Below, one piece after another: positions 4,903 through 46,811 of a stretch of DNA of 64,000 nucleotides. The translations under genes were made by a program, and so were the position numbers. Positions within the stretch are counted from its first letter, which is position 1. Each line of letters starts with the position of its first letter. This DNA comes from Octopus vulgaris (Eukaryota): the NCBI GenBank assembly GCA_951406725.2, contig OX597843.1:3224001-3288000 (forward strand). The letters run 5' to 3'. Under the pieces are notes generated by a model. That model saw only the letters and a list, made by a program, of their open reading frames with translations, ran no database searches and had not been told where the DNA came from.

Positions 4903-6597
4903 ATGATGGAAAACGAATTCTGTGAAGGCGGCAGTGTTAAATGTAAATCAGAGTTTGACAATAATGATTTTCTTGATGAGAAGCGAAAAGACGGAGGGCA
5001 AAAACCCTATTCTTGTGATATATGTAAAATGTCATTGTCTCAAAAAGGTAAACTCATTGTTCACAAACGTGTTCATACAGGAGAGAAACCATTTGACTGT
5101 AACGTTTGTGGCAAATCACTCACTCGTAGCAGTGACTTAACCAAACACAAACGTATTCATACGGGAGAAAAGCCATATCATTGCGATATCTGTGATAAGT
5201 CATTCTCTCAACGTGATCACTTAACAAAACACAGACCTGTTCATAAAGGAGAGAAGACATATCACTGTGATATCTGTGGTAAATCATTCTCTCAAAATAG
5301 TCACTTAACTAAACACAGACGTGTTCATACAGGAGAGAAGCCATATCAGTGTGATATCTGTGGTAAATCATTCTCTGATCAAACATATGTAACTGGACAC
5401 AAACGTATTCATACAGGAGAGAAACCCTATCACTGTGAGATCTGTGGTCAATCATTCTCTGTGAGCAGTACTCTAATTACACACAAACGTATTCATACAG
5501 GAGCAAAGCCATATCAGTGTGATATCTGTGGTAAATCATTCTCTCAAAAGCATACCTTAACTATACACAAACGTGTTCATACAGGAGAGAAGCCATATCA
5601 GTGTGATATCTGTGGTAAATCATTCTCTGAACAAAAACATGTAACTAGACACAAACGTATTCATACAGGAGAGAAACCCTATCACTGTGATATCTGTGAT
5701 AAATCATTCCCTATGAACAGTAGCTTAATTACACACAAACATATTCATACAGGAGAGAAACCCTATCAGTGTGATATTTGTGGTCAATCATTCTCTGTGA
5801 CCAGTAGCTTAAATACACACAAACGTATTCATACAGGAGAGAAGCCATATCAGTGTGATATCTGTGGTATATCATTCTCTCTAAGGCATGAATTAACTAG
5901 ACACAAACGCATTCATACAGGAGAGAAGCCACATCACTGCGATATCTGTGGTAAATCATTCTTTGAAGAAAATAAACTATCTATGCACAAACGTGTTCAC
6001 ACAGGAGAGAAACCCTATCACTGTGAAATCTGTGGTAAATCGTTCGCTTTGACCAGTAGCTTATCTAAACACAAACGTGTTCATACAGGAGAGACGCCAT
6101 ATCAGTGTGAGATCTGTGGTAAATCATTCTCTCGAAGTGATAACTTAGCTAATCACAGACGTGTTCATACAGGAGAGAAGCCGTATCAGTGTGATATCTG
6201 TGGTAAAACATTCTCTGACGGAAATCAACTATCTATACACAAATTCACTCACACAGGAGAGAAACCCTATCACTGTGAGATCTGTGGTAAATTATTTACG
6301 CAGAAATGTAATTTAATTACACACAAACGTATTCATACGGGAGAGAAGCCATATCGGTGTGATATCTGTGGTAAATCATTCTCTGTTGGCAGTAGCTTAA
6401 CTAGACATAAACTTGTTCATATTGTAGAGAGGACATTCCACTGTGACATTTGTGGTAAATCATTTACTCGGAAAGATTCTCTAATTATGCACATACGTGT
6501 TCATACAGGAGAGAAGCCATATTACTGTGAGATCTGTGGTAAATCATTTTCTATAAAAAATAGCTTGGCTAGACACAAACTTACACATACGGGATAA
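4903..6597 (+). CDS. Poly-C2H2 zinc-finger protein, 564 aa, 19 fingers (ZNF unit 1)
   Basis: 35-aa leader then 28-aa CxxC..HxxxH repeats with TGEKPY linkers; no KRAB/SCAN/BTB seen. Confidence 0.95.
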
Positions 6598-7105
6598 AAG
6601 CCATATCACTGTGATGAATCATTCTCTCAAAATAATCACCTAACTAAACACAAATCCATTCTTGCGGGTGAAAAATCTATAATACATCCTTCTATGAAAA
6701 TGGTAACTTAACTATACATAAGTAAATTTTTGCATGGGAGAAGCCATATCACTGCGATATCTGTGATAAATCATTCCCCAAAAAGACAATTCATTACACA
6801 AGTAATGTGTTGATACAAGTGAGTAATTGTATCTGTATCATAATTCTTTCTATGAAGGTAATATCTTCTATAAGATTATCTTAGGAATAATAAAACACAA
6901 CACACGTCCTGTTTGTGTCGCTAGTAGAATAAGACTACCGCAATGAAAAAGAGATAGTGCCTGATTAAATGCAGGTGAACTGTTGTAAAAAGTTTTGCCC
7001 TGACATTGCTGGTATTTTAATCCTAATAAAACTACACCTGAATGTGTATTTAGTTTATCAGTTTCACACACACAAATATATATAAAATAATGCCTTGATA
7101 TGGGA

Positions 7106-7373
7106 GTTCCCAGGGTCTGCTTGTAAACCGGAAACTTGTTAAACAGAACAATAATCTCCCATAGGAGCAGTGTTTCACAGGGTCTGCTTGTAAACCAGAA
7201 ACTTGTAAAACAGAACAATAATCTCCCATAGGAGCAGTGTTTCACAGGGTCTGCTTGTAAACCAGAAACTAGTAAAACAGAACAATAATCTCCCATGGGA
7301 GCAGTGTTTCACAGAGTCCGCTTGTAAACCGGAAACTTGAAAACAGAACAATAATCTCCCATAGGAGCAGTGT
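7106..7373. repeat. 67-bp minisatellite, ~4 copies
   Basis: Unit ttcacagggtcYgcttgtaaaccRgaaacttgtaaaacagaacaataatctcccataggagcagtgt. Confidence 0.9.
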
Positions 7374-8176
7374 TTTAAATCCTAATTCGTCATCATCATC
7401 ATCATCGTTTAACGTCCGTTTTCCATGCTAGCATGGGTTGGACGGTTCAACTGGGAAGCCAGAAGGCTGCACCAGGCTCCAGTCTGATCTGGAAGTATTT
7501 CTACAGCTGGATGCCCTTCCTAACGCCAACCACTTTGTGTGTGTAGTTGGTGCTTTTTACGTGCCACCTGTACAGGTGCCAGGCGAGTCTGGCAACGTCC
7601 ACGATTGGATTGGTGAATTTTACGTGCCACCGACACAGAAGCCAGTGGAGGCGGCACTGGCATCGGCCACGATACGGATGGCGCTTTTTACGTACCTCCA
7701 GTCAGGGAGTCCTGGCAATTGGTTCCCAGAAAAATATTCTACCTGTAAAATTTATAATACTCATAAGTAAATGGCAATAAAACAACAGGAGAATGTAAAA
7801 AATATTTTTTGTAAAATAAAAAGAATGTCAAGATCATTTATAATAAAAATTATTATTATTATTATTATGGTTTTCTGAATTACTTTCATTTTCACTGGAC
7901 TTAAACACACCATCACTTGTGGACACAATCACCAATTCACAAGCACTCATGGACAGACCTGTTAGATCTCTTTTTAAAAAACAAGTCTAGAGTTTTTGCC
8001 CTCTATAAATTTCTTGGTAATACGCAAAAGCATTTGTTATGGTAGTAGAAACTTTTGGAATTCATTCAATATATGGATCTTGTGCTTGAAAGATTTCAGC
8101 TCATCATAGAAAAGTGAGGTGAAAAAAAACTTGTAAACCCAGGGTCTCGTAGAGCAGGTTTTCATAAGGTGAGGTA

Positions 8177-8782
8177 TTACTCTTTTAGTCTTTTACTTGT
8201 TTCAGTCATTTGACTCCGGCCATGCTGGAGCTCCGCTCTTAGTTTAGCAAATCGACCCTGGGACTTATTCTTTGTAAGCCCAGTACATATTCTATCGGTC
8301 TATTTTGCCGAACCGCTAAGTTACGGGAATGTAAACACACCAGCATCGGTTGTCAAACAATGCTAGGGGGATAAACAGACACACATATATATATATATAC
8401 ATATATACGACAGGCTTCTTTAAGTTTCCGTCTACCAAATCCACTGACAAGGCTTTGGTCGACCCGAGGCTATAGTAGAAGACACGTGCCCAAGGTGCCA
8501 CGCAGTGGGACTGAACCCGGAACCATGTGGTTGGTTAGCAAGCTACTTACCACACAGCCAATCATGCGCCTATATATATATATAAATATGTGTGTATGTT
8601 TGTCCCCCAACAACGCTCGACAACCGATGCTGGTGTGTTTACGCCCCCGTAAATTAGCGGTTCGGCAAAATAGACCCATAGAATAAGTACTGGGCTTACG
8701 AAGAATAAGTCTTGGGGGTCGAATTGCTAAACTAAATGGCGGTGCTCCAGCATGGCCGCAGTCAAATGACTGAAACAAGTAG
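8177..8782 (-). mobile_element. tRNA/CORE SINE (-) plus adjacent SINE 3' half (+); paralogues ~16222-16855, ~27197-27800, ~35870-36210, ~48614-49055
   Basis: Reverse complement of the 2665 SINE family. Confidence 0.75.
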
Positions 8783-9002
8783 AAGAGTAGTATAACCGAT
8801 ACGGCATTCTGGTTTCCTGATATTTGCGATGCATAAACTTCGATTCTGTTTTTCTTGTTGGAAATTGGCGGATTTTACATACACACCTGAAGCAGGTGAG
8901 AAGAAATAAGCAAGGTTTTTTTTTAAGATGAGACATTGCTGGTATAATGTCGTTATATCTATACTCGAGAAACCCAGGGAAAAACATAGAAACAGAATGG
9001 AA

Positions 9003-9190
9003 AAGAACAAGCACACACACACACAGACAAGAACAAGCTTACACACACACACACATACAAGAACAAACGCACACACACACGGACAAGAACAAGCACACAC
9101 ACACACACACACGGACAAGTACAAGCACACACACACACACAGACAAGAACAAGCGCACACACACACACACACAGACAAGAACAGGCACAC
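9003..9190. repeat. ACAAGAACAAGC(AC)n compound minisatellite (also ~17078-17245, ~28023-28180, ~36436-36531)
   Basis: Directly visible. Confidence 0.9.
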
Positions 9191-9204
9191 GCGCCAGCTA
9201 GTCA

Positions 9205-9606: not shown

Positions 9607-12600
9607 GTAAGGCCTCTCTATGGTTAAACTATTATTTCACTGGCGATCTTACGGTATAAGTACCGGATACATTTAAAAAAAGTGGGGTTTTTTTTATATA
9701 TGGGGGGTCAGGGATAGGGTTTGTGTTAGGGGTGGGAGAAAAGGATTTCTCTTATCTTCAGGAATGTAAAGTCACGTGTGTACTTATACCGAAGGATCGC
9801 CACATACCCTAACCCCCCCCCATATATATAAAAGAGACCCTTTTTTGAAACGTATCCCGTACTTGCGGAAGTACAGCGGTACTCATACCTATTTCTTTAC
9901 TACTCACAAGGGGCTAAACACAAAGGGGACAAAGGGATTAAGTCGATTACATGGGCCCCAGTCGTAACTGGTACTTAATTTATCGACCCCGAAAGGATGA
10001 AAGGGAAAGTCGACCTCGGCGGAATTTGAACTCAGAACGTAACGGCAGAAGAAATACTGTTAAGCATTTCGGTACTTATACCGTAAGATCGCCCACTTCC
10101 GGAAGTAGACGATCGCCATTTCACTTCGATAGTGTTGGTTAATGGGTCAAACTAACGCCTTTGACCCGGGCACAAAAAAGGAAAAAAAAGGGTCCATGGC
10201 CTTTAAACTATAAGTGTTTGACCCGGGCCAGAAAAAAATGGACAAAATAGTGTAATAGGTGTAAAACTACTTGTTCTAAACGATTATCAAAAACATACAC
10301 ACACACACACAAAGAGAAATGGTTGGTTGAAGGCAAGTGTGCATTGAACTGAATTTAAATAAGCAAGAAAGATATTATCAAAGAAAAGGCCATGGTACCA
10401 TCTTTAGGATCTGTTGTTGTTGTTGTTATTATGGGGTTGAATGTGTGGGTGTCCGGTGAAGTTATTAATATCAATATGTATGCATATATATATACATACA
10501 TACATATATATGTATGTATATATATATGTATGTATATATATATGTATGTATGTAAATATATATATATATACATATATATGTATGTATATATATATATATA
10601 AATGTATATATATATATATATAGATACATATATATATATATAAATGCATATATATATTATATATATATACATATATAATTATATATATATATATATATAT
10701 ACGTACATGCATATATATATGTACATACATATATATATATATACACATACATACATATATATATATGTACACACTCACATACATACATTCATATATATAT
10801 ATATATATACGTTTAAATATTTGTTGTGCAAGATTATTGGCTAAACTGGCAATATGACCATTCCGAAATATAACAATATATATATATATATATATATATA
10901 CTAGCAGTATAACCCAGCTTTGCCCGGCATCAAGTTAGGATTATTAAGCTAAAGAAGTTCTTTATTTCAAACCAAACAGAATATATTCCTTGCCACCGGT
11001 ACAACACTCACCAACAAACCGCCACGAAGCAGCTCGAGAAATTCCATTTGTCTCGTCAAAAGCCAGCACACCAAACTGACCGACGCATGCGCGGGAAGCA
11101 AGCTTCTTACCCTGCAGCCATGCCTGCACCTATGGTAGAATTCTTCAGAAATCCTACAGGATTGGTTGTGTGGTAAGTAGCTTGCTAACCAACCACACGG
11201 TTCCGGGTTTGGTCCCACTGCGTGGCATCTTGGGCAAGTGTCTTCTGCTATAGCCAAGAACCGACCAATGCCATGTGAGTGGATTTGGTAGACGGAAACT
11301 GAAAGAAGCCTGTCCCCCTAGCATTGCTTGACAACCGATGCTGGTGTGTTTACGTCCCCGTCACTTAGGGTTCGACAAATAAGACCGATAGAATAAGTAC
11401 TGGGCTTACAAAGAATAAGTCCAGGGGTCGATCTGCTCGACTAAAGGCGGTGCTCCAGCATGGCCGCAGTCAAATGACTGAAACAAGTCAGAGAGTAAAG
11501 AGTAAGAGTATCTAACCTTCCAGCAGTGTATAAACAGAACATCAGGACATCTATTTCTTTGGCTTCACTTAAATTTTACTTCCAGATTGATTCAATTATG
11601 AAACTGCCAAGGAATTTTCAATTTGTCAACTACTGTCAAATTTGTATTATTCCTACTGCTCTATGTCACGCTGGTGAGACCCATATAGTGGAGTACGGGA
11701 TTCAAGCCTCTTCTCCTTATCTCCTTAAAGACATACAGCATCTCGAAAGAGTCCTGAAGCTGGCTACCCGCATGGTTCTTGGTGTCAAGAATTTGTCTTA
11801 TGAAGAAAGGCTGAAGACGCTCGACCTTTATTCTCTAGAAAAACGACGATGCCGTGGTGATCTCATTCTTGCTCACAACATCATAAGCGGAAAGTGTAAC
11901 CTCTCGACAAAGCTGTTCTTCACTCCTGCTCTAGAGCGTCGGCTGCGGGGTCATTCCGAAAAGCTCTATCTGTGACGATTTCATCTCAATCGAAGGAGAG
12001 GGGCTTCCTCCGTCCGGGTTGCAGATCCGTGGGATAAGCTGCCGGACGAGATGGTGAAGATACCGACGACCGCTCAGTTCACACTCTCCCTTGACCACAA
12101 GTGGCCTGAACTCTTTACATGAACACCACCCTGTACATAACTCCATGTCCCCCTACATGGCCTTGCTTTTTGCATTTTGAGCCAAAAATTAACTAACTAA
12201 CTAACCTTAAATTTCTATGTCTCCTCCCTGATTGACGCAGTTTCTCTGATATTTCAGATAACCAGAAGACATTGGCAGCAAAGAATACTTCAGTGGTCAG
12301 AATCGACGTTTGCCATCTTTCAAAGATTAAAGGAGAACATCACAGGGAACAGATATCACACGGAATATGTAAACACATGGTGGAATTACTGTGGAATATT
12401 TCTTCCGAGTAAGACTGTTAGCGAAATATCTCTACTTCTTCAATGTCTGGAATGTTTTGAAGATGATATGGTATTCTAATTAAACTTGGATGACAAAGGA
12501 GTTTGAGGCATCTTCAGATAACAGAAGATTCAGGAAATATAAAGAGAATAAGTATTTGTTAATGGAAACAAAATTTAGTTCGGAAAAAGTAAAATATCTG

Positions 12601-12623
12601 AACATTGTGGTAAGAGGAAGAAA

Positions 12624-14402
12624 ATGATGGAAAACGAATTCTGTGAAGGCGGCAGTGTTAAATGTAAATCAGAGTTTGGCAATAATGATTTTCTTGATGA
12701 GAAACCAAAAGACAGAGGGCAAAAACCCTATTCTTGTGATATATGTAAAATGTCATTCTCTCAAAAAGGTAAACTCATTGTTCACAAACGTATTCATACA
12801 GGAGAGAAACCATTTGACTGTAACGTTTGTGGCAAATCACTCACTCGTAGCAGTGACTTAACCAAACACATACGGATTCATACAGGAGAGAAGCCATATC
12901 ATTGCGATATCTGTGATAAATCATTCTCTCAACGTGATCACTTAACTAAACATAAACGTATTCATACGGGAGAGAAGCCATATCAGTGTGATATCTGTGA
13001 TAAGTCATTCTCTCAACGTGATCACTTAACAAAACACAGACCTGTTCATACAGGAGAGAAGACATATCACTGTGAGATCTGTGGTAAATCATTCTCTCTA
13101 AGTCATAACCTAGCTAATCACAGACGTGTTCATACAGGAGAGAAGCCATATCAGTGTGATATCTGTGGTAAATCATTCTCTAAAAATGATCACTTAACTA
13201 CACACAAACGTATTCATACAGGAGAGAAACCCTATCACTGTGAGATCTGTGGTCAATCATTCTCTGTGAGCAGTACTCTAATTACACACAAACGTATTCA
13301 TACAGGAGAAAAGCCATATCAGTGTGATATCTGTGGTAAATCATTCTCTCAAAACCCTACCTTAACTATACACAAACGTGTTCATACAGGAGAGAAGCCA
13401 TATCAGTGTGATATCTGTGGTAAATCATTCTCTGAACAAAAACATGTAACTAGACACAAACGTATTCATACAGGAGAGAAACCGTATCACTGTGATATCT
13501 GTGATAAATCATTCTCTATGAACAGTAGCTTAATTACACACAAACATATTCATACAGGAGAGAAACCCTATCAGTGTGATATTTGTGGTCAATCATTCTC
13601 TGTGACCAGTAGCTTAAATACACACAAACGCATTCATACAGGAGAGAAGCCATATCAGTGTGATATCTGTGGTATATCATTCTCTCTAAGGCATGAATTA
13701 ACTAGACACAAACGCTTTCATACAGGAGAGAAGCCACATCACTGCGATATCTGTGGTAAATCATTCTTTGAAGAAAATAAACTATCTATGCACAAACGTG
13801 TTCACACAGGAGAGAAACCCTATCACTGTGAAATCTGTGGTAAATCGTTCGCTTTGACCAGTAGCTTATATAAACACAAACGTGTTCATACAGGAGAGAA
13901 GCCATATCAGTGTGAGATCTGTGGTAAATCATTCTCTCGAAGTGATAACTTAGCTAATCACAGACGTGTTCATACAGGAGAGAAGCCGTATCAGTGTGAT
14001 ATCTGTGGTAAAACATTCTCTGACGGAAATCAACTATCTATACACAAATTCACTCACACAGGAGAGAAACCCTATCACTGTGAGATCTGTGGTAAATTAT
14101 TTACGCAGAAATGTAAATTAATTACACACAAACGTATTCATACGGGAGAGAAGCCATATCGGTGTGATATCTGTGGTAAATCATTCTCTCATGTCAGTGG
14201 CTTAACTAGACATAAACTTGTTCATATCGTAGAGAGGACATTCCACTGTGACATTTGTGGTAAATCATTTACTCGGAAAGATTCTCTAATTATGCACATA
14301 CGTGTTCATACAGGAGAGAAGCCATATCACTGTGAGATCTGTGGTAAATCATTTTCTATAAAACATAGCTTGGCTAGACACAAACTTACACATACGGGAT
14401 AA
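12624..14402 (+). CDS. Poly-C2H2 zinc-finger protein, 592 aa, 20 fingers (ZNF unit 2)
   Basis: Same leader; exactly 28 aa longer than unit 1. Confidence 0.95.
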
Positions 14403-14616
14403 AAGCCATATCACTGTGATAAATCATTCTCTCAAAGTAATCAGCTAACGAAACACAAATCCATTCTTGCGGGTGAAAAATCTATAATACATCCTTCTAT
14501 GAAAATGGTAACTTAACTATACATAAGTAAATTCTTGCATGGGAGAAGCCATATCACTGCGATATCTGTGATAAATCATTCCCCCAAAAGACAATTCATT
14601 ACACAAGTAATGTGTT

Positions 14617-15073
14617 TGTAAAGGGAACTGGTTGCTTCTGTACACTTTTGGGGTGCAACCCAATTTCCTTTCTTTTTGTTTCTAGAAACTACCAGTCAGG
14701 AACGAAACGCAAGTTTAAAGATAAATACAATTCTTTATTCTCTTGGTTCAACAATGAAACACGATGGTATACTGGTATCCACCTAGTTCAACACAGCAAG
14801 GCTGAATTCTATCGTTTGTAAGCTTCTTACAATAATTCTGCAGCAATAGAACAGGTGAAATCCTAAGCGTCTGGGACAGGAGAATAGGCTGATCACACGT
14901 TTAAAATACGTCCTTTCTCTTCTTCAGTCTCTAGCGCATGTGCATGGGGGAACTTCCTTATGCCTTTCCAGAAGGTTCCAATCCCGCACACGCACACTGA
15001 AGAAGGACGTTCCGCACACGCACACTTTAGAATGACGTTGCGTGTGCGCACACTGGAATATGACGTCACTACA
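14617..15073 (-). mobile_element. Solo LTR (probably Gypsy-type) in 3' region of ZNF unit 2
   Basis: TGTA...TACA termini, TGTT 4-bp TSD (14613-14616, 15074-15077); empty site aatgtgttcatac in unit 0; AATAAA and TA-rich box on - strand. Confidence 0.8.
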
Positions 15074-17259
15074 TGTTCATACAAGTGAGTAATTGTATCT
15101 GTATCATAATTCTTTGTATGAAGGTAATATCTTCTATAAGATTATCTTAGAAATAATAAAATACAACACACGTCCTGTTTGTGTCGCTAGTAGAATAAGA
15201 CTACCGCAACGAAAAAGAGAGAGTGCCTGATTAAATGCAGGTGAACTGTTGTAAAAAGTTTTGCTCTGACATTGCTGGTATTTTAATCCTAATAAAACTA
15301 CGCCTGAACGTGTATTTAGTTTATCAGTTTCACACAAACAAATATATATAAAATAATGCTTTGATATGCGAGTTCACAGAGTCCGCTTGTAAACCGGAAA
15401 CTTGTCAAACAGAACAATAATCTCCCATAGGAGCAGTGTTTCACCGAGTCCGCTTGGAAACCGGAAACTTGTAAAACAGAACAATAATCTCCCATAGGAG
15501 CAGTGTTTCACAGAGTCTGCTTGTAAATCGGAAATTTGTAAAACAGAACAATAATCTCCCATAGGGGGCTGGTAACGGCCACGATTGGATTCGTGCATTT
15601 TATGTGCCACCGGCACGGAAGCCAGTTGAGGCGGCACTGGCATGGGACACGATTCGGATGGTGCTTTTTACGTGCCACCGACACAGAAGCCAGTCGAGGC
15701 GATGCTGGCATCGGCCACGATACGGATAGCGCTTTTTACGTACCACCAGTCCAGGGGTCCTGGCAATTGGTTCCCAGAAAAATATTCTACCTGTAAAATT
15801 TATAATACTCATAAATAAATGTCAATAAAACAACAGGAGAATGTAAAAAATATTTTTTGTAAAACAAAAAGAATGTCAAGATCATTTATAATAAAAATTA
15901 TTATTATTATTATGGTTTTCTGAATTACTTTCATTTTCAGTGGACTTAAACACACCATCACTTGTAGACACAATCACCAATTCACAAGCACTCATGGACA
16001 GACCTGTAGATCTCTTTTTAAAAAACAAGTCTAGAGTTTTTGGCCTCTATAAATTTCTTGGTAATACGCAGAAGCATTTGTTATGGTAGTAGAAACTTTT
16101 GGAATTCATTCAATGTATGGATCTTGTGCTTGAAAGATTTCAGCTCATCATAGAAAAGTGAGGTGAAAAAAAACTTGTAAACCCAGGGTCTCGTAGAGCA
16201 GGTTCTCGTAAGGTGAGGTATTACTCTTTTAGTCTTTTGCTTGTTTCAGTCATTTGACTGCAGCCATGCTGGAGCACCGCTTTTAGTCGAGCAAATCGAC
16301 CCCGGGACTTATTCTTTGTAAGCCCAGTACATATTCTGTCGGTCTCTTTTGCCGAACCGCTAACTGATGGGGACGTAAACACACCAGCATCGGTTGTCAA
16401 ACAGTGCTAGGGGGGCAAACGCAAATGCATACATATATATATATATATATATATATAAATATAAATACATATATACGACGGGCTTCTTTCAGTTTCCGTC
16501 TACCAAATCCACTCACAAGGCTTTGGTCGGCCCGGGGCTATAGCAGAAGACACTTGCCCAAGGTGCCACGCAGTGGGAGTGAACCCGGAACCATGTGGTT
16601 GGTTAGCATACTACTTACCACAAAGCCACTCCTACGCCTATATATATATATATAAACGTGTGTGTGTGTATGTTTGTCCCCCAACAACGCTCGACAACCG
16701 ATGCTGGTTTGTTTACGTCCCCGTAACTTAGCGGTGTGGCAAAATACCCCGATAGAAAAAATACTGGGCTTACGAAGAATAAGTCTTGGGGGTCGATTTG
16801 CTCGACTAAATGGCGGTGCTCCAGCATGGCCGCAGTCAAATGACTGAAACAAGTAGAAGAGTAGTATAACCGATACGGCATTCTGGTTTCCTGATATTTG
16901 CGATGCATAAACTTCGATTCTGTTTTTCTTGTTGGAAATTGGCGGATTTTACATACACACCTGAAGCAGGTGAGAAGAAATAAGCAAGGTTTTTTTTTAA
17001 GATGAGACATTGCTGGTATAATGTCGTTATATCTATACTCGAGAAACCCAGGGAAAAACATAGAAACAGAATGGAAAAGAACAAGCACACACACACACAG
17101 ACAAGAACAAGCTTACACACACACACACATACAAGAACAAACGCACACACACACGGACAAGAACAAGCACACACACACAGACAAGAACCAGCACACACAC
17201 ACACAGAGAACAGGCACACACACACACAGACAAGAACAAGCACACGCGCCAGCTAGTCA

Positions 17260-17871: not shown

Positions 17872-19248
17872 TTGGTACTTGTCAATTGTCGTGGTCCCGG
17901 TTTTGCACACGCGAATTCGCGCGCGCGCGCGCGCCAGACGTAGGTACTCGATACTCGAGATCCTACGAGGTGAAATGCGCAGCGCAGAATTCGCGCGTGC
18001 GCGTTAAACCCCCCCCCTAAAAAAAAAGGTGTTGGATTTCACTAAAAATATATGTGTGTGTGTGTGTGTGTGTATATATAACATTTTCAATTTTACACAA
18101 AAAAATTACATAGTCGCTTTCCTCGCGGATTTACAGAGAAATGAATTAATTACTATTTTACAGAATAAAATTAATGAATTAATTATATAAATTAAATAAT
18201 TCTTGAAAATTAATTAATATTAATAATATTTTTTGAACAAAGTAAATAATTTATAAAACTTGGTTAATAATTTTTTTACACAAACGCGAACGTATATAAT
18301 TTGTGAAATTTTTTTTTTTTTACAGACGTATATAATTTGGTAAACTTAATGAATTAATTTCTTCTCATCATCATCATCGTTTAACGTCCGTTCTCCATGC
18401 CAGCATGGGTTGGACGGTTCGACCGGGGATCTGGGAAGCCAGAAGGCTGCACCAGACTCCAGTCTTATCTGGCAATGTTTCTACAGCTGGATGCCCTTCC
18501 TAACGCCAACCACTCCGAGAGTGTAGTGGGTGCTTTTTACATGCCACCCGCACAGGTGCCAAGCGAGGCTGGCAACGGCCACGGTCGGATTGGTGCCAGT
18601 CGAGGCGGCTCTGGCATCGGCCACGATTCGGATAGTGCTTTTTACGTACCACCAGTCCAGGGGTCCTGGCATTTGCCGGGTGCCACACTTGCCCCAACAT
18701 GTCTTCGCAAGCAAAGGGGGTTGGCATGGGTGCCTGTCGTGGGATGAGGTTCGATATCAACTTCGCTTGCCTCAACAGGTCTTTGTGTATAAATGTATAA
18801 ATTTTTCGCACTAAATTCTTTCCGTAGAATTTATAAAAAAACGCGCAAAATTATTCCGTAGACTTTATCAAATTAAAAAACGCAAAATTAATATATTTTT
18901 TGAAATTGCAAATTATTTAGAATATAAAACAAATTAAGTTAAATTTTAAAAATAAATGTCATATACTTATACTCTGTAAAGTGCTGTGTTCACACTTCAA
19001 TTTACTATTTTCTAGAAATGTTGCTTTTCTAATTGAAACAATTTTTCTCAATCTCCATTTAAAAGTCCATAATGCCTCTTGAGCCATATCAAAATGAACA
19101 ACTTTGAATTACCCGGTGGTGGTGGTGGTGGTGGTGTGAGGTTCTAATTTTTTTCTGATCTCTCTTTGCCCCCCCTAGATGGAGGTGTGGTGGGGAGACA
19201 GATGAAAGATGTTTCATTCTCTACTATATATGTATATATATATCTATA

Positions 19249-23698: not shown

Positions 23699-25810
<2,112 letters not shown>

Positions 25811-28194
25811 AAAGCCATATCACTGTGATGAATCATTCTCTCAAAATAATCACCTAACTAAACACAAATCCATTCTTGCGGGTGAAAAATCTATAATACA
25901 TCCTTCTATTAAAATGGTAACTTAACTATACATAAGTAAATTTTTGCATGGGAGAAGCCATATCACTGCGATATCTGTGATAAATCATTCCCCAAAAAGA
26001 CAATTCATTACACAAGTAATGTGTTGATACAAGTGAGTAATTGTATCTGTATCATAATTCTTTCCATGAAGGTAATATCTTCTATAAGATTATCTTAGGA
26101 ATAATAAAACACAACACATGTCCTGTTTGTGTCGCTAGTAGAATAAGACTACCGCAACGAAAAAGAGAGAGTGCCTGATTAAATGCAGGTGAAATGTTGT
26201 AAAGAGTTTTGCTCTGACATTGCTTGTATTTTAATCCTAATAAAACTACACCTGAACGTGTATTTTGTTTATCACTTTCACACACACAAATATATATAAA
26301 AAATGATGCCTTGATATGGGAGTTCACAGAGTCCGCTTGTAAACCGGAAACTTGTAAAACAGAACAATAATCTCCCATAGGAGCAGTGTTTTAAATCCTA
26401 ATTCATCATCTTCGCTTAGCGTCCGCTTTCCATGCTAGCATGGGATGGACGGTTCGACCGGGGATCTGGGAAGCCGGAAGGCTGCACCAGGCTCCAGTCT
26501 GCTCTGGCAGTGTTTCTACAGCTGGATGCCCTTCCTAACGCCAACCACTCCGTGAGTATAGTGGGTGCTTTTTACGTGCCACCTGTACATGTGCCAGGGG
26601 AGGCTGGCAACGGCCACGATCGTATTGGTGCTTTTTACATGCCACCGGCACGGAAGCCAGTCGAGGCGACGCTGGCATCGGCCACGATACGGATAGCGCT
26701 TTTTACGTACCACCAGGCAAGGGGTCCTAGCAATTGGTTCCCAGAAAAATATTCTACCTGTAAAATTTATAATACTCATAAATAAATGTCAATAAAACAA
26801 CAGGAAAATGTAAAAAACATTTTTTGTAAAATAAAAAGAATGTCAAGATCATTTATAATAAAAAATATTATTATTATTATTATTATTGTGGTTTTCTGAA
26901 TTACTTTCATTTTCACTGGACTTAAACACACCATCACTTGTGGACACAATCACCAATTCACAAGCACTCATGGACAGACCTGTAGATCTCTTTTTAAAAA
27001 GCAAGTCTAGAGTTTTTGCCCTCTATAAATTTCTTGGTAATATGCAGAAGCATTTGTTGTGGTAGTAGAAACTTTTGGAATTCATTCAATATATGGATCT
27101 TGTGCTTGAAAGATTTCAGCTCATCATAGAAAAGTGAGGTGAAAAAAAACTTGTAAACCCAGGGTCTCGTAGAGCAGGTTCTCGTAAGGTGAGGTATTAC
27201 TCTTTTAGTCTTTTACTTGTTTCAGTCATTTGACTCCGGCCATGCTGGAGCACCGCTTTTAGTCGAGCAAATCGACCCCGGGACTTATTCTTTGTAAGCC
27301 CAGTACTTATTCTATCGGTCTATTTTGCCGAACCGCTAAGTGACGGGGACGTAAACACACCAGCATCGGTTGTCAAACAATGCTAGGGGGACAAACACAA
27401 ACACACACAAGCATATATATATATATACATATATACGACAGGCTTCTTTCAGTTTCCGTCTACCAAATCCACTCACAAGGCTTTGGTCGACCCGAGGCTA
27501 TAGTAGAAGACACTTGCCCAAGGTGCCACGCAGTGGGACTGAACCCGGAACCATGTGGTTGGTTAGCAAGCTACTTACCACACAGCCACTCCTGCGCCTA
27601 CATATATATAAATATGTGTGTGTGTATGTTTGTCGCTCGACAACCGATGCTGGTGTGTTTACGTCCCCGTAACTTAGCGATTCGGCAAAAGAGACCCATA
27701 GAATAAGTACTGGGCTTACGAAGAATAAGTCTTGGGGTCGATTTGCTCAACTAAATGGCGGTGCTCCAGCATGGCCGCAGTCAAATGACTGAAACAAGTA
27801 GAAGAGTAGTATAACCGATACGGCATTCTGGTTTCCTGATATTTGCGATGCATAAACTTCGATTCCGTTTTTCTTGTTGGAAATTGGCGGATTTTACATA
27901 CACACCTGAAGCAGGTGAGAACAAAGAAGCAAGGTTTTTTTTTTAAGATGAGACATTGCTGGTATAATGTCGTTATATCTATACTCGAGAAACCCAGGGA
28001 AAAACATAGAAACAGAATGGAAAAGAACAAGCACACACACACACACACACTGACAAGAACAGGCACACACACACACACAGACAAGAACAAGCACACACAC
28101 ACAGACAGACAAGAACAGGCACACACACACACACAGACAAGAACAGGCACACACACACACACAGACAAGAACAGGCACACGCGCCAGCTAGTCA

Positions 28195-32910: not shown

Positions 32911-33597
32911 ATGATGGAAAACGAATTCTGTGAAGGCGGCAGTGTTAAATGTAAATCAGAGTTTGACAATAATGATTTTCTTGATGAGAAGCCAAAAGAC
33001 GGAGGGCAAAAACCCTATTCTTGTGATATATGTAAAATGTCATTCTCTAAAAACGGTAAACTCATTGTTCACAAACGTGTTCATACAGGAGAGAAGACAT
33101 ATCGGTGTGATATCTGTGGTAAATCATTCTCTCGAAGTGATAACTTATCTAGACACAAACGCATTCATACAGGGGAAAAGCTATTTGACTGTGACATTTG
33201 TGGTGAATCATTTACTCAGAAAGATATTCTAATTAAACACAAACGTATTCATACACGAGAGAAGTCATATCAGTGTGAGATTTGTGGTAAATCATTCTCT
33301 GTGAGCAGTAGCTTAAATACACACAAACGTATTCATACAGGAGAGAAACCCTATCACTGTGAGATTTGTGGTAAATCATTCTCTGTGAGCAGTAGCTTAA
33401 ATTCACACAAACGTATCCATACAGGAGAGAAGCCATATCGGTGTGATATCTGTGGTAAATCATTCTCTCGAAGTGTTCACTTAGCTAATCACAGACGTGT
33501 TCATACAGGAGAGAAGCCATATCACTGTGAGATCTGTGGTAAATCATTTTCTATAAAACATAGCTTGGCTAGACACAAACTTACACATACGGGATAA
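32911..33597 (+). CDS. Poly-C2H2 zinc-finger protein, 228 aa, 7 fingers (ZNF unit 4)
   Basis: Same leader; first three fingers match unit 3; terminal IKHSLAR finger matches units 2 and 5. Confidence 0.93.
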
Positions 33598-33759
33598 AAG
33601 CTATATCACTGTGATGAATCATTCTCTCAAAATAATCACCTAACTAAACACAAATCCATTCTTGCGGGTGAAAAATCTATAATACATCCTTCTTTCAAAA
33701 TAGTCACTTAACTATACATAAGTAAATTTTTGCATGGAAGAAGCCATATCACTGTGATA

Positions 33760-34143
33760 TATTTATATATAAAAGTGAAGTTGTGTGTCTGTCTCCTACG
33801 ATTTAGATTCCTAACTACTCCCACATTTTGCGGTGCAGTTTAACCAGAAGCGGGTATCTTATAGTCGTGATTCATATCGAGCCCTTCTGGGTATTAGCGT
33901 GAGTCTACAATTTTAGAAATGATTTACCATAATTTTTCACCATTTTTAATTCAATTTTTTGCAATTATATAAGGGAAGTAACTCTCTAAAAATGTATTAT
34001 TAAATCTCAGAACTTTAAAAGCTACAGTAACACCCCACTTTGTGGTTTGCCATATTGGGATTGCTATTATACTTTACATCTCTAAAAATGCTTATATAGT
34101 TATTTCCCTTACAAACCCGAGCAACGCCGGGCGATACTGCTAG
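33760..34143 (+). mobile_element. Non-autonomous Helitron-like insertion (384 bp)
   Basis: Inserted between A and T of gata|tctg with no TSD (compare other units); ends with hairpin CCCG..CGGG then atactgCTAG; 5' end is TA rather than canonical TC. Confidence 0.8.
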
Positions 34144-34490: not shown

Positions 34491-35093
34491 TTCACAGAGT
34501 CCGCTTGTAAACCGGAAACTTGTAAAACAGAACAATAATCTCCCATAGGAGCAGTGTTTCACAGGGTCCGCTTGGAAACCGGAAACTTGTAAAACAGAAC
34601 AATAATCTCCCATAGGAGCAGTGTTTCACAGGGTCCGCTTGGAAACCGGAAACTTGTAAAACAGAACAATAATCTCCCATAGGAGCAGTGTTTCACAGGG
34701 TCCGCTTGTAAACCGGAAACTTGTAAAACAGAACAATAATCTCCCATAGGAGCAGTGTTTCACAGGGTCCGCTTGGAAACCGGAAACTTGTAAAACAGAA
34801 CAATAATCTCCCATAGGAGCAGTGTTTCACAGGGTCCGCTTGGAAACCGGAAACTTGTAAAACAGAACAATAATCTCCCATAGGAGCAGTGTTTCACAGG
34901 GTCCGCTTGGAAACTGGAAACTTGTAAAACAGAACAATAATCTCCCATAGGAGCAGTGTTTCACAGGGTCCGCTTGGAAACCGGAAACTTGTAAAACAGA
35001 ACAATAATCTCCCATAGGAGCAGTGTTTCACCGAGTCCGCTTGGAAACCGGAAACTTGTAAAACAGAACAATAATCTCCCATAGGAGCAGTGT
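34491..35093. repeat. 67-bp minisatellite, 9 copies
   Basis: Exact 67-bp period, also seen as staggered 62-aa ORFs. Confidence 0.95.
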
Positions 35094-36545
35094 TTTAAAT
35101 CCTAATTCATCATCATCATCGTTTAGCATCCGCTTTCCAAGCTAGCATGGGTTGGACAGTTCAACCGGGGATTTGGGAAGCCAGAAGGCTGCACCAGGCT
35201 CCAGTCTGATCTGGCAGTGTTTCTACAGCTGGATGCCCTTCCTAACGCCAACCACTCCGTGAGTGTAGTGGGTGCTTTTTATGTGCCACCTATACAGGTG
35301 CCTGGCGAGGCTGGCAATGGGCACGATTGGATTGATGCATTTTACATGCCACCGGCATGGAAGCCAGTCGAGGCGACGCTGGCATTGCCCGCGATGCGGA
35401 GAGCGCTTTTTACGTACCACCAGTTTCTGGCAATTGGTTCCCAGAAAAATATTCTACCTGTAAAATTTATAATACTCATAAATAAATGGCAATAAAACAA
35501 CAGGAGAATGTAAAAAATATTTTTGTAAAATAAAAAGAATGTCAAGATCATTTATAATAAAAATTATTATTATTATTATTATTATGGTTTTCTGAATTAC
35601 TTTCATTTTGACTGGACTTAAACACACCATCCATTGTAGACACAATCACCAATTCACAAGCACTCATGGACAGACCTGTAGATCCCTTTTTAAAAAACAA
35701 GTCTAGTGTTTTTGCCCTGCATAAACTTCTTAGTAATACGCAGAAGCATTTGTTATGGTAGTAGAAACTTTTGGAATTCATTCAATATATGGATCTTGTG
35801 CTTGAAAGATTTCAGCTCATCATAGAAAAGTGAGGTGAAAAAAAACTTGTAAACCCAGGTTCTCATATATACGACAGGCTTCTTTCAGTTTCCGTCTACC
35901 AAATCCACTCACAAGGCTTTGGTCGGCCCGAGGCTATAGTAGAAGACACTTCCCCAAGGTGCCACGCAGTGGGACTGAACCCGGAACCATGTGGTCGGTA
36001 AACAAGCTACTTACCACACAGCCACTCCTGCGCGTATATATATATAAATATGTGCGTGTATGTTTATCGCTTGACAACCGATACTGGTGTGTTTACATCC
36101 CCGTAATCTAGCGATTCGGCAAAAGAGACCCATAGAATAAGTACTGGGGTCGATTTGCTCAACTAAATGGCGGTGCTCCAGCATGGCCGCAGTCAAATGA
36201 CTGAAACAAGTAGAAGAGTAGTATAACCGATACGGCATTCTGGTTTCCTGATATTTGCGATGCATAAACTTCGATTCCGTTTTTCTTGTTGGAAATTGGC
36301 GGATTTTACATACACACCTGAAGCAGGTGAGAAGAAATAAGCAAGCTTTTTTTTTAAGATGAGACATTGCTGGTATAATGTCGTTATATCTATACTCGAG
36401 AAACCCAGGGAAGAACATAGAAACAGAATGGAAGAGAACAAGCACACACACACAGACAAGAACAAACACACACACACACAGACACACACTGACAAGAACA
36501 AACACACACACACACACAAGAACAAGCACACGCGCCAGCTAGTCA

Positions 36546-37998: not shown

Positions 37999-40900
37999 CA
38001 TCATCATCGTTTAACGTCCACTTTCCATGCTAGCATGGGTTGGACGGTTCAACTGGGGTCTGGCAAGCCCGAAGGCTACACCAGGCCAGTCAGATCTGGC
38101 AGTGTTTCTACAGCTGGATGCCCTTCCTAACGCCAACCACTCCGAGAGTGTAGTGGGTGATTTTATGTGCCACCGACACAGGTGCCAGACGAGGCTGGCA
38201 GACGGCCACGCTCGGATGGTGTTTTTTATGTGCCACCGACACAGGTGTCAGACGAGGCTGGCAGACGGCCACGCTCGGATGGTGTTTTTTATGTGCCACC
38301 GACCAGGTGCCAGACGAGGCTGGCAGACGGCGACGCTCGGATATGGTGTTTTTCTTATGTAATACCGACACAGGTGCCAGACGAGGCTGGTGAATGGCTA
38401 CGATCGGATGGTGTTTGTTACGTGCCCACGGCACGGAGGCCAGTCGATGCGTTACCGGCTACGGTCCCGTTCGGATGGTTTTCTTATGTGCCACCGGCAC
38501 TGGTACCACAAGGATACAAATTCCATTGATGTTCATCTATTTTGATTTGGTTTGACTTGATTCGATTTGCCTCAACAGGTCTTCACAAGTGTCACAAGCA
38601 GGAAGGTATGCACAGGTGGACTGACTATGTCCCAGGTAGGGGCCACGGGTTATGGCTTCACTAGTCTTGCCGGGTCTTCTCACGCACAGCATACTTCCAT
38701 AGGTCTCGGTCTCTAGTCATTTCCATGGTGAGACCTAACGTTCAAAGGTCGTGCTTCACCACCTCGTCCCAGGTTTTCCTGGGTCTACCTCTTCCACGGT
38801 TTCCCTCAACTGCTAGGGATTGGCACTTTCTCACACACCTATCTTCATCCATTCTCGCCACATGACCATACCAGCGCAATCGTCTCTCTTGCATGCAACA
38901 ACTGATGCTTCTTAGGTACAACATTTCTCTCAGGGAACTAACGCTCTGTCGAGTAAGTACACTGACATTACACATCCATCGGAGCATACTGGCTTCATTC
39001 CTCATGAGCTTACGCATGTCCTCAGCAGTCACGGCCCATGTTTCACTGCCATGTAGCATGGCAGTTCGAACACATGCATCATACAGTCTGCCCTTTACTC
39101 TGAGCGAGAGGCCTTTAGTCACCAGCAGAGGTAAGAGCTCCCTAAACTTTGCCCAGGCTATTCTTATTCTAGCAGTTACACTCTCAGCACACCCACCCCC
39201 ACTACTGACTTGGTCACCTAGATAACGGAAGCTATCAACTACTTCTAATTTTTTCCCCTGGAAAGTGACGGAAGTTGTTTTCTGCAGATTTTCGGAGGTC
39301 AATGCTCCCGAGCATCTGCCACATACAAAAACTATCTTCCCAGTTAGCCTACCTTTGACATTGCTGCACCTCTTATGTGTCCATAGCTTACACTGGGTAC
39401 ATCTTATAGAGTTTCTACCTACACCTTTTCTACAGATCGAGCAGGGCCATCTTCCTGAGGACATTTGTGGATTGCCTACCTTTCTACTTATTAGTACTTT
39501 GGTTTTAGCTAGGTTGACTCTAAGGCCCCTCGATTCTAAACCCTCCTTCCACACCTGGAACTTCTCCTCCAGTTCTGATAGTGACTCAGCAATTAGAGCG
39601 AGGTCGTCAGCATAGAGGAGCTCCCAGGGGCAACCTGTCTTGAATTCCTCTGTTATTGCCTGGAGGACTATGATAAATAGGAGGGGGCTTAGTACTGAAC
39701 CCTGGTGGACCCCAACCTCTACTTTGAATTCTTCTGTGAACATGTTGCCAACCCTAACCTTGCTTACGGCATCTCTGTACATGGCTTGCACAGCCCTCAC
39801 CAGCCATTCATCTATCCCTAGTTTCCTCATTGACCACCAGATGAGGGATCGGGGGACCCTATCAAAGGCTTTCTCCATGTCAATGAAAGCCAGGTATAGG
39901 GGCTTATCTTTGGCTAGGTATTTCTCCTGCAGCTGCCTTACCAGGAATATAGCATCAGTGGTGCTTTTCCCTGGCACAAACCCAAACTGCATCTCATCTA
40001 AACTAACTCTCTCTCTAATTAGTTGGGCTATGACCCTCTCCGTAACCTTCATTACCTGATTCAACAGCTTGATACTTCTGTAATTATTTGTATCTAGGGC
40101 ATCACCTTTACCTTTGTAGCAGTTGACTAGTACGCTGCTACACCAGTCATTGGGTATGACTCCTTCGTGTATCACCTGGTTGACTATACGGGTGACTAGG
40201 TTATAGCCGACACTGCCAGATATTTTGAGCATCTCTGCAGTAATTCCTGATGGGCCTGGGGCTTTCCCTGTCTTCATGCTTCTAATTTCCTTAGCTACCA
40301 CGGAACTATCAACTCGGATAGCTGGTCCCTCTGTTGGGTCAACATTCGGCAAACTCTCTTTATCCCATTCATTTTCTTTATTCAGCAACCTTTCATAGTG
40401 GCATCTCCAAACCTCTCTCTTTGCATCCTCATTTAGCGCAAGTGAACCATCATCCATGCGAACACACTTCTCTCCTACCACATCACGATTCTCTCTCACA
40501 CACTGTCTTGCAACACGAAATACCTCAAGTCTTTCATCCTCACGGCGCAGAACATTGGCAAATTTTTTCTTATCCGCTTCCCCTCTGGCTAAATAAACCT
40601 GTCTCCTAGCTTCCCTTCTGGCTGTCTGATACAATTCCCTGCTACCACCGTTCTTCCAGTCCTTCCAAGCCTGTCTCTTTTGTCTAATAGCCCTGTCAAC
40701 CACAGTGTTCTGCCACCATGTTACTCTGGGTTGAGATGGTACTTTGCTCCATCCACAGATCTGGTCAGTGGCTGTCAGCAGATTGTCCCGTAGAAATCTC
40801 CAGTTGTCTTCCACATTAAGTGAAGCTATATCCCCTTCTATTTCGTCAAAGGCTTCGAGTAGTATGTCTCTAAATCTCTGTCCATTTGCAGGATCTTTAA

Positions 40901-42262
40901 GCTTCCAGACCCTTCTCCTCCAAGCAGGTCTTCTTCTGGGCAACCATTTAGCTCTGATCCTGAAGTCGCTAACTACTAATCTATGTTGAGGAGTGCATTC
41001 TTCGCCTGGAAAGGTTTTGGCATTTATAATCAGCCCTCTTTCCCTTTTTCTGGCAAGGATGTAGTCAATCTGGCTGGTGTGTCTGCCAGAACGGTAGGTG
41101 ACTAGGTGAGAGGAGAGTTTCCTGAAGTTGGTATTGCAGACCATAAGGTCATTTGCATCGCAGCCTGGTTCCCTCCTCATTACGAGAGCCGAAACCGTAG
41201 CCTCCATGGACGCCATGGAAGCCCCCGACATGCCGTCCGACATGTCCATTGAAATCACCTGCCACGAAGAGAAGGTCACTGTCATTTGTCAACGAGGTAG
41301 TTCGCAATAGGGTGTCATAGAATTGGTCTTTTTGTCCTTCCGGTAGCCCTGGTTGAGGGGCATATGCCGAGATGATGGTAACTGTCCTGTGGTGAAGGAC
41401 TAATCTAATTTTAATTACTCTGTCACTTACTCTGACTACCTCAATTACCTTACCTACCCATTTCTCTGCAAGAAGTATACCAACGCCCCCGACCCCGTCA
41501 GTGTTCCCTGCCCAGAAAATCTTGTACCTGTGTTCCTTGCCTGTGAGGAGCCTAGCGGAACCTCCTCTCCACCTTACTTCCTGGATACAACATAAATCCA
41601 CAAGTCTCTGTTCAAGCAGCTCTACAATCTCTCCAGACCTACCTTTCAATGTGCCAACTCTGGGGGTGTGGGAGGTGTGGGCATCTGAGACCCTGGGATG
41701 AGGGACAGCCGTGTCATGTACCTGAAAAGAAAGCTTGCATTTGGCAGATTTCATATGGAAACACTAGACTACAACCTGCATACATTTCACATATATTGCG
41801 CTATATGATCAGATAAACCCTACATAGGTGCTAGTGGGGGGGGTAGTTAGGTAAGACAGGGGTAGAACTTCCGGTATTTTGGTAGAAACTTCCGGTATTG
41901 GTGGAGGGGGTGGGAGGGCGTGCGAGAACATAGAGGCAACTAGTTTGAATATTATATTTAGGGGAAAATAATAAGATAAATGAAAGAGAGCCAGATAGAG
42001 AATGAAAATAAATAATAAATACGGTATGGTAATGATACGAGGGGGCAATATTTTGAGGGATAATGGAATAAACAACGAAGATGGCACTGAAAGAAACGGT
42101 AAACTTTAAAAGAATGCATTGAAGACGCTATGTTTTAGCGAAGGGAAACGAAAGGGGAACAGATTAAGGTTATCTAAACAAACGCTTAAAAATATGAAAG
42201 TAGCAGTTGAGGTTTAAAGTCTTAACTGGCCATTTTGAAAATCCGTCTTTTCTCTGGAGGCG
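37999..42262 (-). mobile_element. Apparently full-length RTE-clade LINE, inactivated
   Basis: APE endonuclease (IQEVRW, GDFNGH, IDYIL), RT (KAFDRV, GVHQGSVLSPLLF, YADD), (ATG)n tail; whole span absent from other units; AAAT on both flanks. Confidence 0.92.
38742..41754 (-). pseudogene. RTE ORF (endonuclease + RT + PHD-like finger), frameshifted near 41160
   Basis: ORFs 41149-41754 and 38742-41285 overlap at NEEGTRL/CDANDL; stop after KHDL where other copies continue KHDLRTLGLTEEM. Confidence 0.88.
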
Positions 42263-44276: not shown

Positions 44277-46811
44277 ATGATAGAAAACGAATTCTGTGAA
44301 GGCGGCAGTGTTAAATGTAAATCAGAGTTTGACAATAATGATTTTCTTGATGAGAAACCAAAAGACAGAGGGCAAAAACCCTATTCTTGTGATATATGTA
44401 AAATGTCATTCTCTCAAAAAGGTAAACTCATTGTTCACAAACGTATTCATACAGGAGAGAAACCATTTGACTGTAACGTTTGTGGCAAATCACTCACTTG
44501 TAGCAGTGACTTAACCAAACACATACGGATTCATACAGGAGAGAAGCCATATCATTGCAATATCTGTGATAAGTCATTCTCTCAACGTGATCACTTAACT
44601 AAACATAAACGTATTCATACGGGAGAGAAGCCATATCACTGTGATATCTGTGATAAGTCATTCTCTCAACGTGATCACTTAACAAAACACAGACCTGTTC
44701 ATACAGGAGAGAAGACATATCACTGTGAGATCTGTGGTAAATCATTCTCTCTAAGTCATAACCTAGCTAATCACAGACGTGTTCATACAGGAGAGAAGCC
44801 ATATCAGTGTGATATCTGTGGTAAATCATTCTCTAAAAATGATCACTTAACTACACACAAACGTATTCATACAGGAGAGAAACCCTATCACTGTGAGATC
44901 TGTGGTCAATCATTCTCTGTGAGCAGTACTCTAATTACACACAAACGTATTCATACAGGAGAAAAGCCATATCAGTGTGATATCTGTGGTAAATCATTCT
45001 CTCAAAACCCTACCTTAACTATACACAAACGTGTTCATACAGGAGAGAAGCCATATCAGTGTGATATCTGTGGTAAATCATTCTCTGAACAAAAACATGT
45101 AACTAGACACAAACGTATTCATACAGGAGAGAAACCGTATCACTGTGAGATCTGTGGTCAATCATTCTCTATGAACAGTAGCTTAATTACACACAAACAT
45201 ATTCATACAGGAGAGAAACCCTATCAGTGTGATATTTGTGGTCAATCATTCTCTGTGACCAGTAGCTTAAATACACACAAACGCATTCATACAGGAGAGA
45301 AGCCATATCAGTGTGATATCTGTGGTATATCATTCTCTCTAAGGCATGAATTAACTAGACACAAACGCATTCATACAGGAGAGAAGCCACATCACTGCGA
45401 TATCTGTGGTAAATCATTCTTTGAAGAAAATAAACTATCTATGCACAAACGTGTTCACACAGGAGAGAAACCCTATCACTGTGAAATCTGTGGTAAATCG
45501 TTCGCTTTGACCAGTAGCTTATCTAAACACAAACGTGTTCATACAGGAGAGAAGCCATATCAGTGTGAGATCTGTGGTAAATCTTTCTCTCGAAGTGACA
45601 ACTTAGCTAATCACAGACGTGTTCATACAGGAGAGAAGCCGTATCATTGTGATATCTGTGGTAAAACATTCTCTGACGGAAATCAACTATCTATACACAA
45701 ATTCACTCACACAGGAGAGAAACCCTATCACTGTGAGATCTGTGGTAAATTATTTACGCAGAAATGTAAATTAATTACACACAAACGTATTCATACGGGA
45801 GAGAAGCCATATCGGTGTGATATCTGTGGTAAATCATTCTCTGTTGGCAGTAGCTTAACTAGACACAAACCTGTTCATATAGGAGAGAGGAAATTTGACT
45901 GTGATATCTGTGATAAATCATTCTCTATGAACAGTAGCTTAATTACACACAAACATATTCATACAGGAGAGAGGAAATTTGACTGTGATATCTGTGATAA
46001 ATCATTCTCTATGAACAGTAGCTTAAATACACACAAACGCATTCATACAGGAGAGAAGCCATATCAGTGTGATATCTGTGGTATATCATTCTCTCTAAGG
46101 CATGAATTAACTAGACACAAACGCATTCATACAGGAGAGAAGCCACATCACTGCGATATCTGTGGTAAATCATTCTTTGAAGAAAATAAACTATCTATGC
46201 ACAAACGTGTTCACACAGGAGAGAAACCCTATCACTGTGAAATCTGTGGTAAATCGTTCGCTTTGACCAGTAGCTTATCTAAACACAAACGTGTTCATAC
46301 AGGAGAGAAGCCATATCAGTGTGAGATCTGTGGTAAATCATTCTCTCGAAGTGATAACTTAGCTAATCACAGACGTGTTCATACAGGAGAGAAGCCGTAT
46401 CATTGTGATATCTGTGGTAAAACATTCTCTGACGGAAATCAACTATCTATACACAAATTCACTCACACAGGAGAGAAACCCTATCACTGTGAGATCTGTG
46501 GTAAATTATTTACGCAGAAATGTAAATTAATTACACACAAACGTATTCATACGGGAGAGAAGCCATATCGGTGTGATATCTGTGGTAAATCATTCTCTGT
46601 TGGCAGTAGCTTAACTAGACATAAACTTGTTCATATTGTAGAGAGGACATTCCACTGTGACATTTGTGGTAAATCATTTACTCGGAAAGATACTCTAATT
46701 ATGCACAAACGTGTTCATACAGGAGAGAAGCCATATCACTGTGAGATCTGTGGTAAATCATTTTCTATAAAACATAGCTTGGCTAGACACAAACTTACAC
46801 ATACGGGATAA
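44277..46811 (+). CDS. Poly-C2H2 zinc-finger protein, 844 aa, 29 fingers (ZNF unit 5)
   Basis: Unit-2-like array plus an internal 9-finger (252 aa) duplication. Confidence 0.95.

Follow-up and report, generated by a model that had tools for sequence, protein, structure and literature searches.

A 64,000-nucleotide stretch of the Octopus vulgaris genome (contig OX597843.1, here C30, positions 3224001-3288000; the whole of it is called the window below) carries five complete C2H2 zinc-finger genes and the 3' end of a sixth, unit 0. They are best read as a young tandem cluster whose finger arrays have quite probably been reshaped in 84-bp blocks by unequal crossing-over and gene conversion, acting both within and between gene copies. 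The closest known case is that of the mouse KRAB zinc-finger clusters; the octopus cluster works like a young KRAB zinc-finger protein (KZFP) cluster without KRAB, by a mechanism already known from mouse. The useful additions made here are the contrast between the C30 genes and their relatives on C7, and a set of documented inter-gene junctions.

A family of recent duplicates

A leader search of the genome (~2.8 Gb) returned 19 close matches and 24 more distant ones, which marks a clustered multi-copy family. Fourteen of the 19 close copies lie on C30, four on C7 and one on C28; those on C30 fall at 3.13-3.27 Mb, where there are 12 on both strands, and at 5.92-5.93 Mb, where there are two. Window units 0-5 are designated U0-U5, and the C30 copies beyond the window m2-m7, d1 and d2. 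Every one of the 19 keeps an open frame that runs from an ATG through a leader of 33-35 amino acids into 7-29 fingers, and these fingers, 28-residue CxxC-x12-HxxxH repeats set in tandem with TGEKP linkers, are of the Kruppel-type C2H2 class. The genes of the window start 7.7-11.4 kb apart (Table 1). The gene units, 8-11 kb long, were duplicated recently; their flanks align at ~88-97%, and the copies are 95-99% alike. Two protein searches (24 matches; the best 120 of 1438) listed no zinc-finger protein of another Octopus species, which is not evidence of absence. An unrelated, divergent array of ~21 fingers with unusual helices such as WKKSLAI also lies within the cluster interval (L023-L024, C30 ~3.148-3.150 Mb, + strand).

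The first-pass annotation had counted 19, 20, 20 (plus four out-of-frame), 7 and 29 fingers in the five complete genes, with a YSCDICKMS finger first and an IK(N/H)SLAR finger physically last in each; both statements are borne out. Its two N-terminal types, units 1/2/5 versus 3/4, can be seen in fingers 1-2, and further types of finger 2 occur in the wider cluster.

Blocks probably moved within and between genes

Among the 14 C30 genes, the leader region (proximal 500 aligned columns) has diverged by 1.9% on average (0.4-3.2%). Median collinear sharing of their internal fingers is 0.25 and reaches at least 0.7 in 3 of 91 pairs, and array sharing bears no relation to leader divergence (rho -0.003). 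The four C7 copies have diverged by 2.7%, yet their sharing is 0.87-1.0 in all six pairs. Because these equally old copies stayed 87-100% collinear, the remodelling is a local property of the C30 cluster. Divergence in the wider flanks, aligned for nine genes (m4, m5, m7, d1 and U0 left out), is 2.4-4.7% on the 5' side and 2.0-5.2% on the 3' side.

Helices recur from array to array, as first noted, and their order does vary: RSDNLAN follows EQKHVTR in units 1/2/5 and precedes it in unit 3, and KNDHLT precedes EQKHVTR in units 2/5 and follows it in unit 3. Such reordering is nevertheless a minority phenomenon, as 29 of the 249 matched internal fingers in the 91 pairs are non-collinear and 220 are collinear (shuffled null 152.5). 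Since order is mostly kept, blocks have moved and fingers have not been freely shuffled.

From one array to another, runs of 1-11 fingers have been deleted, duplicated or swapped at sharp in-register junctions. For instance, unit 0 corresponds to a unit-2-like array minus 11 fingers, and it switches cleanly within the linker region; at the point where its QNPTLT finger had been seen to join the last finger directly, the 40 informative sites consist of 18 that follow the left parent and then 22 of which 21 follow the right. Unit 4 switches from unit-3-like (fingers 1-2) to m2-like (fingers 3-7). In unit 1, whose array is otherwise unit-2-like, fingers 4-5 are nearest to those of unit 3 and m2, a tract that may have arrived by conversion or a double crossover. 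Unit 5 contains an internal seven-finger duplication and, as its finger 20 (45978-46061), the hybrid helix MNSSLNT; a hybrid helix also occurs in finger 17 of m5. Six of the seven junctions examined individually are sharp, fingers 18-19 of U5 being mixed. Across C30, 17 of 237 fingers are two-parent hybrids, against a mean of 3.6 and a maximum of 6 in 30 column shuffles, and 22 of 217 two-finger windows are sharp mosaics (a count for which no null was run), with breakpoints mostly in linker or framework and two wholly within a helix. Sharp junctions and hybrid fingers thus support the in-register 84-bp unequal exchange or conversion that was initially proposed for these arrays.

Exchange has also passed from gene to gene. 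Insertion A, which lies 205 bases behind the array, and insertion B mark different sets of copies (Table 1); we take the former to be solo-LTR-like (LTR, long terminal repeat) and the latter Helitron-like. Finger-2 type and insertion A occur in all four combinations (U2/U5, U0/U1, m3 and U3), and the 5' and 3' flank trees of nine genes reject each other in the approximately unbiased (AU) test (p=5e-7 and 0.0135). The 5' and 3' markers have recombined between copies, and because marker combinations are mixed and flank trees conflict, the exchange crosses genes. Across genes, finger histories and flank histories disagree, in keeping with the reassortment first suggested. Related blocks also occur on the other strand and at a distance of 2.7 Mb.

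These observations bear on a simpler history in which tandem duplication was followed only by duplication and deletion of fingers within each gene, with near-neutral drift of contact residues and no inter-gene exchange. Such a history agrees with the 88% collinearity of matched fingers, with a ratio of nonsynonymous to synonymous rates (dN/dS) near 1 for isolated point changes and with the fact that the shared last finger is no longer translated last in 5 of 14 C30 copies. It is unlikely in view of the four-combination pattern around a unique insertion, the conflicting flank trees, the unit-3-like tract in unit 1 and the array sharing that is unrelated to leader divergence.

Several points weigh against remodelling by inter-gene exchange and should be set beside it. 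The leaders may have been homogenised by conversion, in which case genes look younger than their arrays; duplication and deletion confined to single genes can account for some changes of order; the 3' flank tree, a short one of 403 columns, has weak support; and the evidence comes from a single assembly, in which collapsed or false copies could occur. An artefact that accounts for part of the pattern, whether misjoined reads or both haplotypes laid out in tandem, is nonetheless extremely unlikely. The near identity of the copies, the unit 5 blocks that differ at only 7 of 588 bases and the use of assembly sequence alone would fit it; flanks that differ by 2-5%, copies that carry different insertions, junction fingers that have a sequence of their own and the related blocks on the opposite strand and at a distance would not.

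Under the favoured explanation, unequal crossing-over and gene conversion in 84-bp blocks, misaligned pairing would start in the unique flanks and would resolve in the 16-residue framework that the fingers share, so that the frame is kept, whole helices are moved and the end units stay put. Selection would then probably favour new contact residues, and each copy is predicted to recognise different DNA.

The constancy of the array ends can be expressed as the share of same-type pairs among ten genes (m3, m5, m7 and U0 left out), which is 1.0, 0.13, 0.09 and 0.09 counted from the 5' end and 0.82, 0.42, 0.49, 0.36 and 0.27 counted from the 3' end. Twelve of the 14 C30 genes have the IK.SLAR finger in physically last place, and only 9 translate it last; in U3, m3 and m4 it is dead, m5 has lost it, and in m7 it stands inside the array. 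Behind the stop of all six window units lies a dead finger remnant similar to the finger that is last, and live, in the C7 copies. Because this untranslated finger is no less constant than the last finger, the constancy of the ends looks geometric. We infer an edge effect in which unique flanks anchor the end units. That the last finger is fixed for the sake of a function was considered and rejected as unnecessary, the dead finger behind the stop being equally fixed; finger 1 may still owe its place to a function. In d2 (L009) a second untranslated block, of nine fingers and ending in IKNSLAR, lies behind the stop, and m7 (L001) has IKNNLAR twice in mid-array.

Table 1. Zinc-finger units and associated features, in window coordinates
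Feature	Position	Strand	Description
Unit 0, last two fingers and stop	1..191	+	Full gene in L007: 8 canonical fingers and one with a 3-bp deletion, frame of 283 aa
Unit 1	4903..6597	+	35-aa leader, 19 C2H2 fingers, 564 aa; array 5008-6603
Unit 1 fingers 4-5	5260..5427	+	Nearest to unit 3 / m2 fingers, rest of array unit-2-like
Dead finger remnant behind stop	6604..6678	+	Also at 198, 14409, 25818, 33604 and 46818; all six window units
Unit 2	12624..14402	+	Leader, 20 fingers, 592 aa; array 12729-14408
Insertion A	14617..15073		TG...CA ends, 4-bp target duplication; marker in U2, U5, m3, m5, m6
Unit 3	23699..25492	+	Leader, 20 fingers, 597 aa; 2-bp deletion near 25488 ends frame; array 23804-25817
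Unit 3 out-of-frame fingers	25482..25817	+	Four, two with stops; untranslated IKHSLAR finger among them
Unit 4	32911..33597	+	Leader, 7 fingers, 228 aa; array 33016-33603
Insertion B	33761..34143		Between A and T, ends CTAG; marker in U4, m2, m4, d1
Unit 5	44277..46811	+	Leader, 29 fingers, 844 aa; array 44382-46817
Unit 5 internal 7-finger duplication	45306..46649	+	Copies 45306-45893 and 46062-46649, with 7 differences in 588 bp; flank two junction fingers

Relation to PRDM9 and to other C2H2 expansions

The first-pass annotation likened the arrays to PRDM9, and there are likenesses: in-register 84-bp turnover, hybrid fingers (U5 finger 20, m5 finger 17), a distinct first unit, a stop-bearing last unit and polarised variation are all features of Prdm9 in the sections of PMC3890296 used, where the first repeats are described as distinct, the last ones as carrying the stop, and polarity is reported. 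A PRDM9-type coding minisatellite in the full sense implies arrays that are homogenised internally and turn over fast, vary only at the contacts and exist as many alleles per gene. The share of amino-acid diversity at contact sites is 0.24-0.26 (three sites) or 0.32-0.34 (four sites) in the cluster; the sections of PMC5519329 used leave the site set behind its statistic unspecified. The values there are 0.687 for human PRDM9, 0.910 for mouse and 0.33-1.0 for complete orthologues, the lowest of which (0.33-0.35) the four-site share touches. Against this, masked finger identity within arrays, at 0.80-0.82, falls inside the 0.61-0.86 of 30 other octopus arrays (diversity share 0.17-0.31), which were picked by leader or PR/SET similarity and not at random, and the nearest finger lies in the same array for only 7 of the 107 fingers of the six window units. 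PR/SET (PF21549) has 15 matches in the genome, none of them in C30 3.1-3.3 Mb, the nearest being ~350 kb from the cluster edge. Unlike PRDM9, therefore, the cluster has arrays that are not homogenised internally, exchange among many paralogues and no PR/SET that was found. A PRDM9-type minisatellite is very unlikely and, in the strict sense of the term, not supported.

Elsewhere on C30 (L037, L038 and L057, ~2.767-2.787 Mb, - strand) a tandem PR/SET exon pair is followed by 14- and 16-finger arrays. The exon of this pair that was tested has PRDM9 as its best match among solved structures (E 3.5e-24; next family 2.4e-16), and the two arrays, with a repeated QSGALTK, have the highest masked identity of the 30 examined (0.84-0.86). 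The pair is a candidate for octopus PRDM9-like genes. Further PR/SET matches lie at C30 4.17 and 5.46 Mb.

Mouse KZFP paralogues provide the better parallel. In the parts of PMC5363842 used they show duplications, deletions and repeats of 2-7 fingers, including in non-adjacent and opposite-strand units, and in those of PMC11952569 arrays are strain-specific and non-allelic recombination is proposed. The octopus cluster likewise consists of recent tandem paralogues in which the finger part is least conserved and related signatures appear in non-adjacent and opposite-strand copies, and its young arrays have been reshaped by block duplication, deletion and exchange. It differs in having no detected KRAB and only a leader of 33-35 amino acids, and its expansion is independent. 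Furthermore, binding of transposable elements (TEs) is a demonstrated feature of mouse KZFPs and a merely possible one of the octopus cluster. The papers cited by accession are those of Kauzlaric et al. (PMC5363842), Bruno et al. (PMC11952569), Buard et al. (PMC3890296), Wells et al. (PMC10547256) and Baker et al. (PMC5519329).

With other cephalopod C2H2 genes and the FiNZ-ZNF genes of fish, the cluster has in common that its multi-finger genes are lineage-specific and clustered; unlike in FiNZ-ZNF, its leader is not strongly conserved. The sections of PMC10547256 used report positive selection on the contact residues of FiNZ-ZNF in some clades and predicted motifs of octopus zinc-finger genes (ZNFs) that are enriched in TEs, and note that only 11 of 236 human motif predictions agreed with experiment. 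The cephalopod C2H2 expansions are described in the sections used of Holzinger et al. (PMC12513265), where a transposon arms race is left as an open question. Finger-level recombination in octopus is absent from the same sections of that paper ("recombination" gives 0 matches) and of PMC10547256, and a literature search, with most subscription papers and supplements outside its scope, found no paper that treats the exchange of fingers in octopus.

Contact residues, leader and neighbouring elements

Whether selection acts on the fingers was assessed with dN/dS, the mutation spectrum being taken from the flanks (190 changes). On short finger-to-finger links in C30 the ratio is 2.2-2.6 at contact, 0.84-0.98 at framework and 0.12-0.22 at structural sites; at contact sites it is 1.4 among window units (p=0.16) and 1.7 in C7 (p=0.07). 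One-tree codon models give 3.0-3.4, 1.1-1.2 and 0.07 for the same three classes, and twice the log-likelihood gain over dN/dS=1 is 17-22; the fits remained at their start values for linker sites and in one structural-site fit. Conversion makes the use of one tree invalid, however, as the sections used of both PMC5519329 and PMC3890296 warn. Seven in-frame fingers (U0 6-8, m7 8-11) were left out of the link and codon-model estimates, and the result is the same with them. Changes private to one finger give a contact dN/dS of 1.9-2.8 (p 0.0002-0.024).

Two results count against positive selection. Isolated private changes, those without another change inside 6-9 bases, number 7-12 and give 0.9-1.4, which is not significant; in 25 simulated runs with a true dN/dS of 2.2 the isolated estimate exceeded 1.3 in 95%. 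In addition, a simulation of neutral contacts with conversion from donors outside the sample reached 2.1 in 12% of 25 runs and also reproduced the clustering of changes. As only 16 of 36 helix changes are isolated, new helices arise largely as clustered changes; donors for such changes were found in other ZNF loci in 0 of 30 cases among 310 background fingers, a small part of those in the genome. Contact residues thus do change faster than the framework, as the first-pass annotation expected, but the excess vanishes for isolated point changes. Purifying selection on zinc-binding and core residues is clear, with a dN/dS of ~0.1 at structural sites, and positive selection at contact residues is probable, if by no means assured.

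The cluster shows how new octopus binding arrays likely arise, by swaps of finger blocks between copies, and the equally old, barely changed C7 copies form a built-in control; the arms-race question is therefore testable on 14 versus 4 genes. By analogy, young transposons are the favoured guess for the targets. A bolder proposal is that of a candidate multi-gene specificity generator, in which a dozen effector-less genes would draw on one finger library, be polymorphic between individuals and be positively selected to track young octopus transposons. We hold it to be rather doubtful; if true, it would be an invertebrate parallel to KRAB zinc-finger defence without KRAB.

The leader has zero matches in a Pfam search and is weakly constrained (dN/dS 0.70-0.85 over 29 leaders), on which grounds a conserved KRAB- or FiNZ-like effector in it was rejected. 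A genome-wide search for KRAB and SSXRD gave zero matches, but so did its controls. An in-frame stop sits 16 codons upstream of the ATG; the AG near it is lost in m3 and m4, the C7 copies have frame-breaking indels there, and no upstream coding exon is evident. The palindrome GCGCATGCGC, presumably NRF1-like, occurs once per unit and in the inverted copy between units 2 and 3 (window 963, 9491, 17547, 20672, 28481 and 36832) and may mark a promoter; a related site lies within 10898-11157, a stretch in common with the C7 copies.

Other elements of the window include an inverted duplication of 1.3 kb at 98.4% identity in the interval between units 2 and 3 (17872-19176 and 19475-20780). A 67-bp minisatellite of 3 to 9 copies in the 3' flanks of the units (7107-7375, 15373-15565, 34491-35095 and 47828-48020) is a non-coding repeat that also changes copy number within the same units. 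A long interspersed nuclear element (LINE; 38742-41763, - strand) has a reverse transcriptase match (RVT_1, E 4e-32) and a weak PHD-like one; an overlapping frame upstream is one that we take to be an endonuclease, and because of this overlap the LINE appears frameshifted. A 123-bp tandem repeat (50379-51982; 13 copies at 96%) resembles the 3' end of the LINE-like frame that immediately precedes it. Lastly, an open reading frame at 57678-58637 (- strand) encodes an alpha-1,3-fucosyltransferase (Glyco_transf_10). It belongs to a multi-copy Octopus family and shares 98% identity with a protein of O. sinensis and 89% with one of O. vulgaris.

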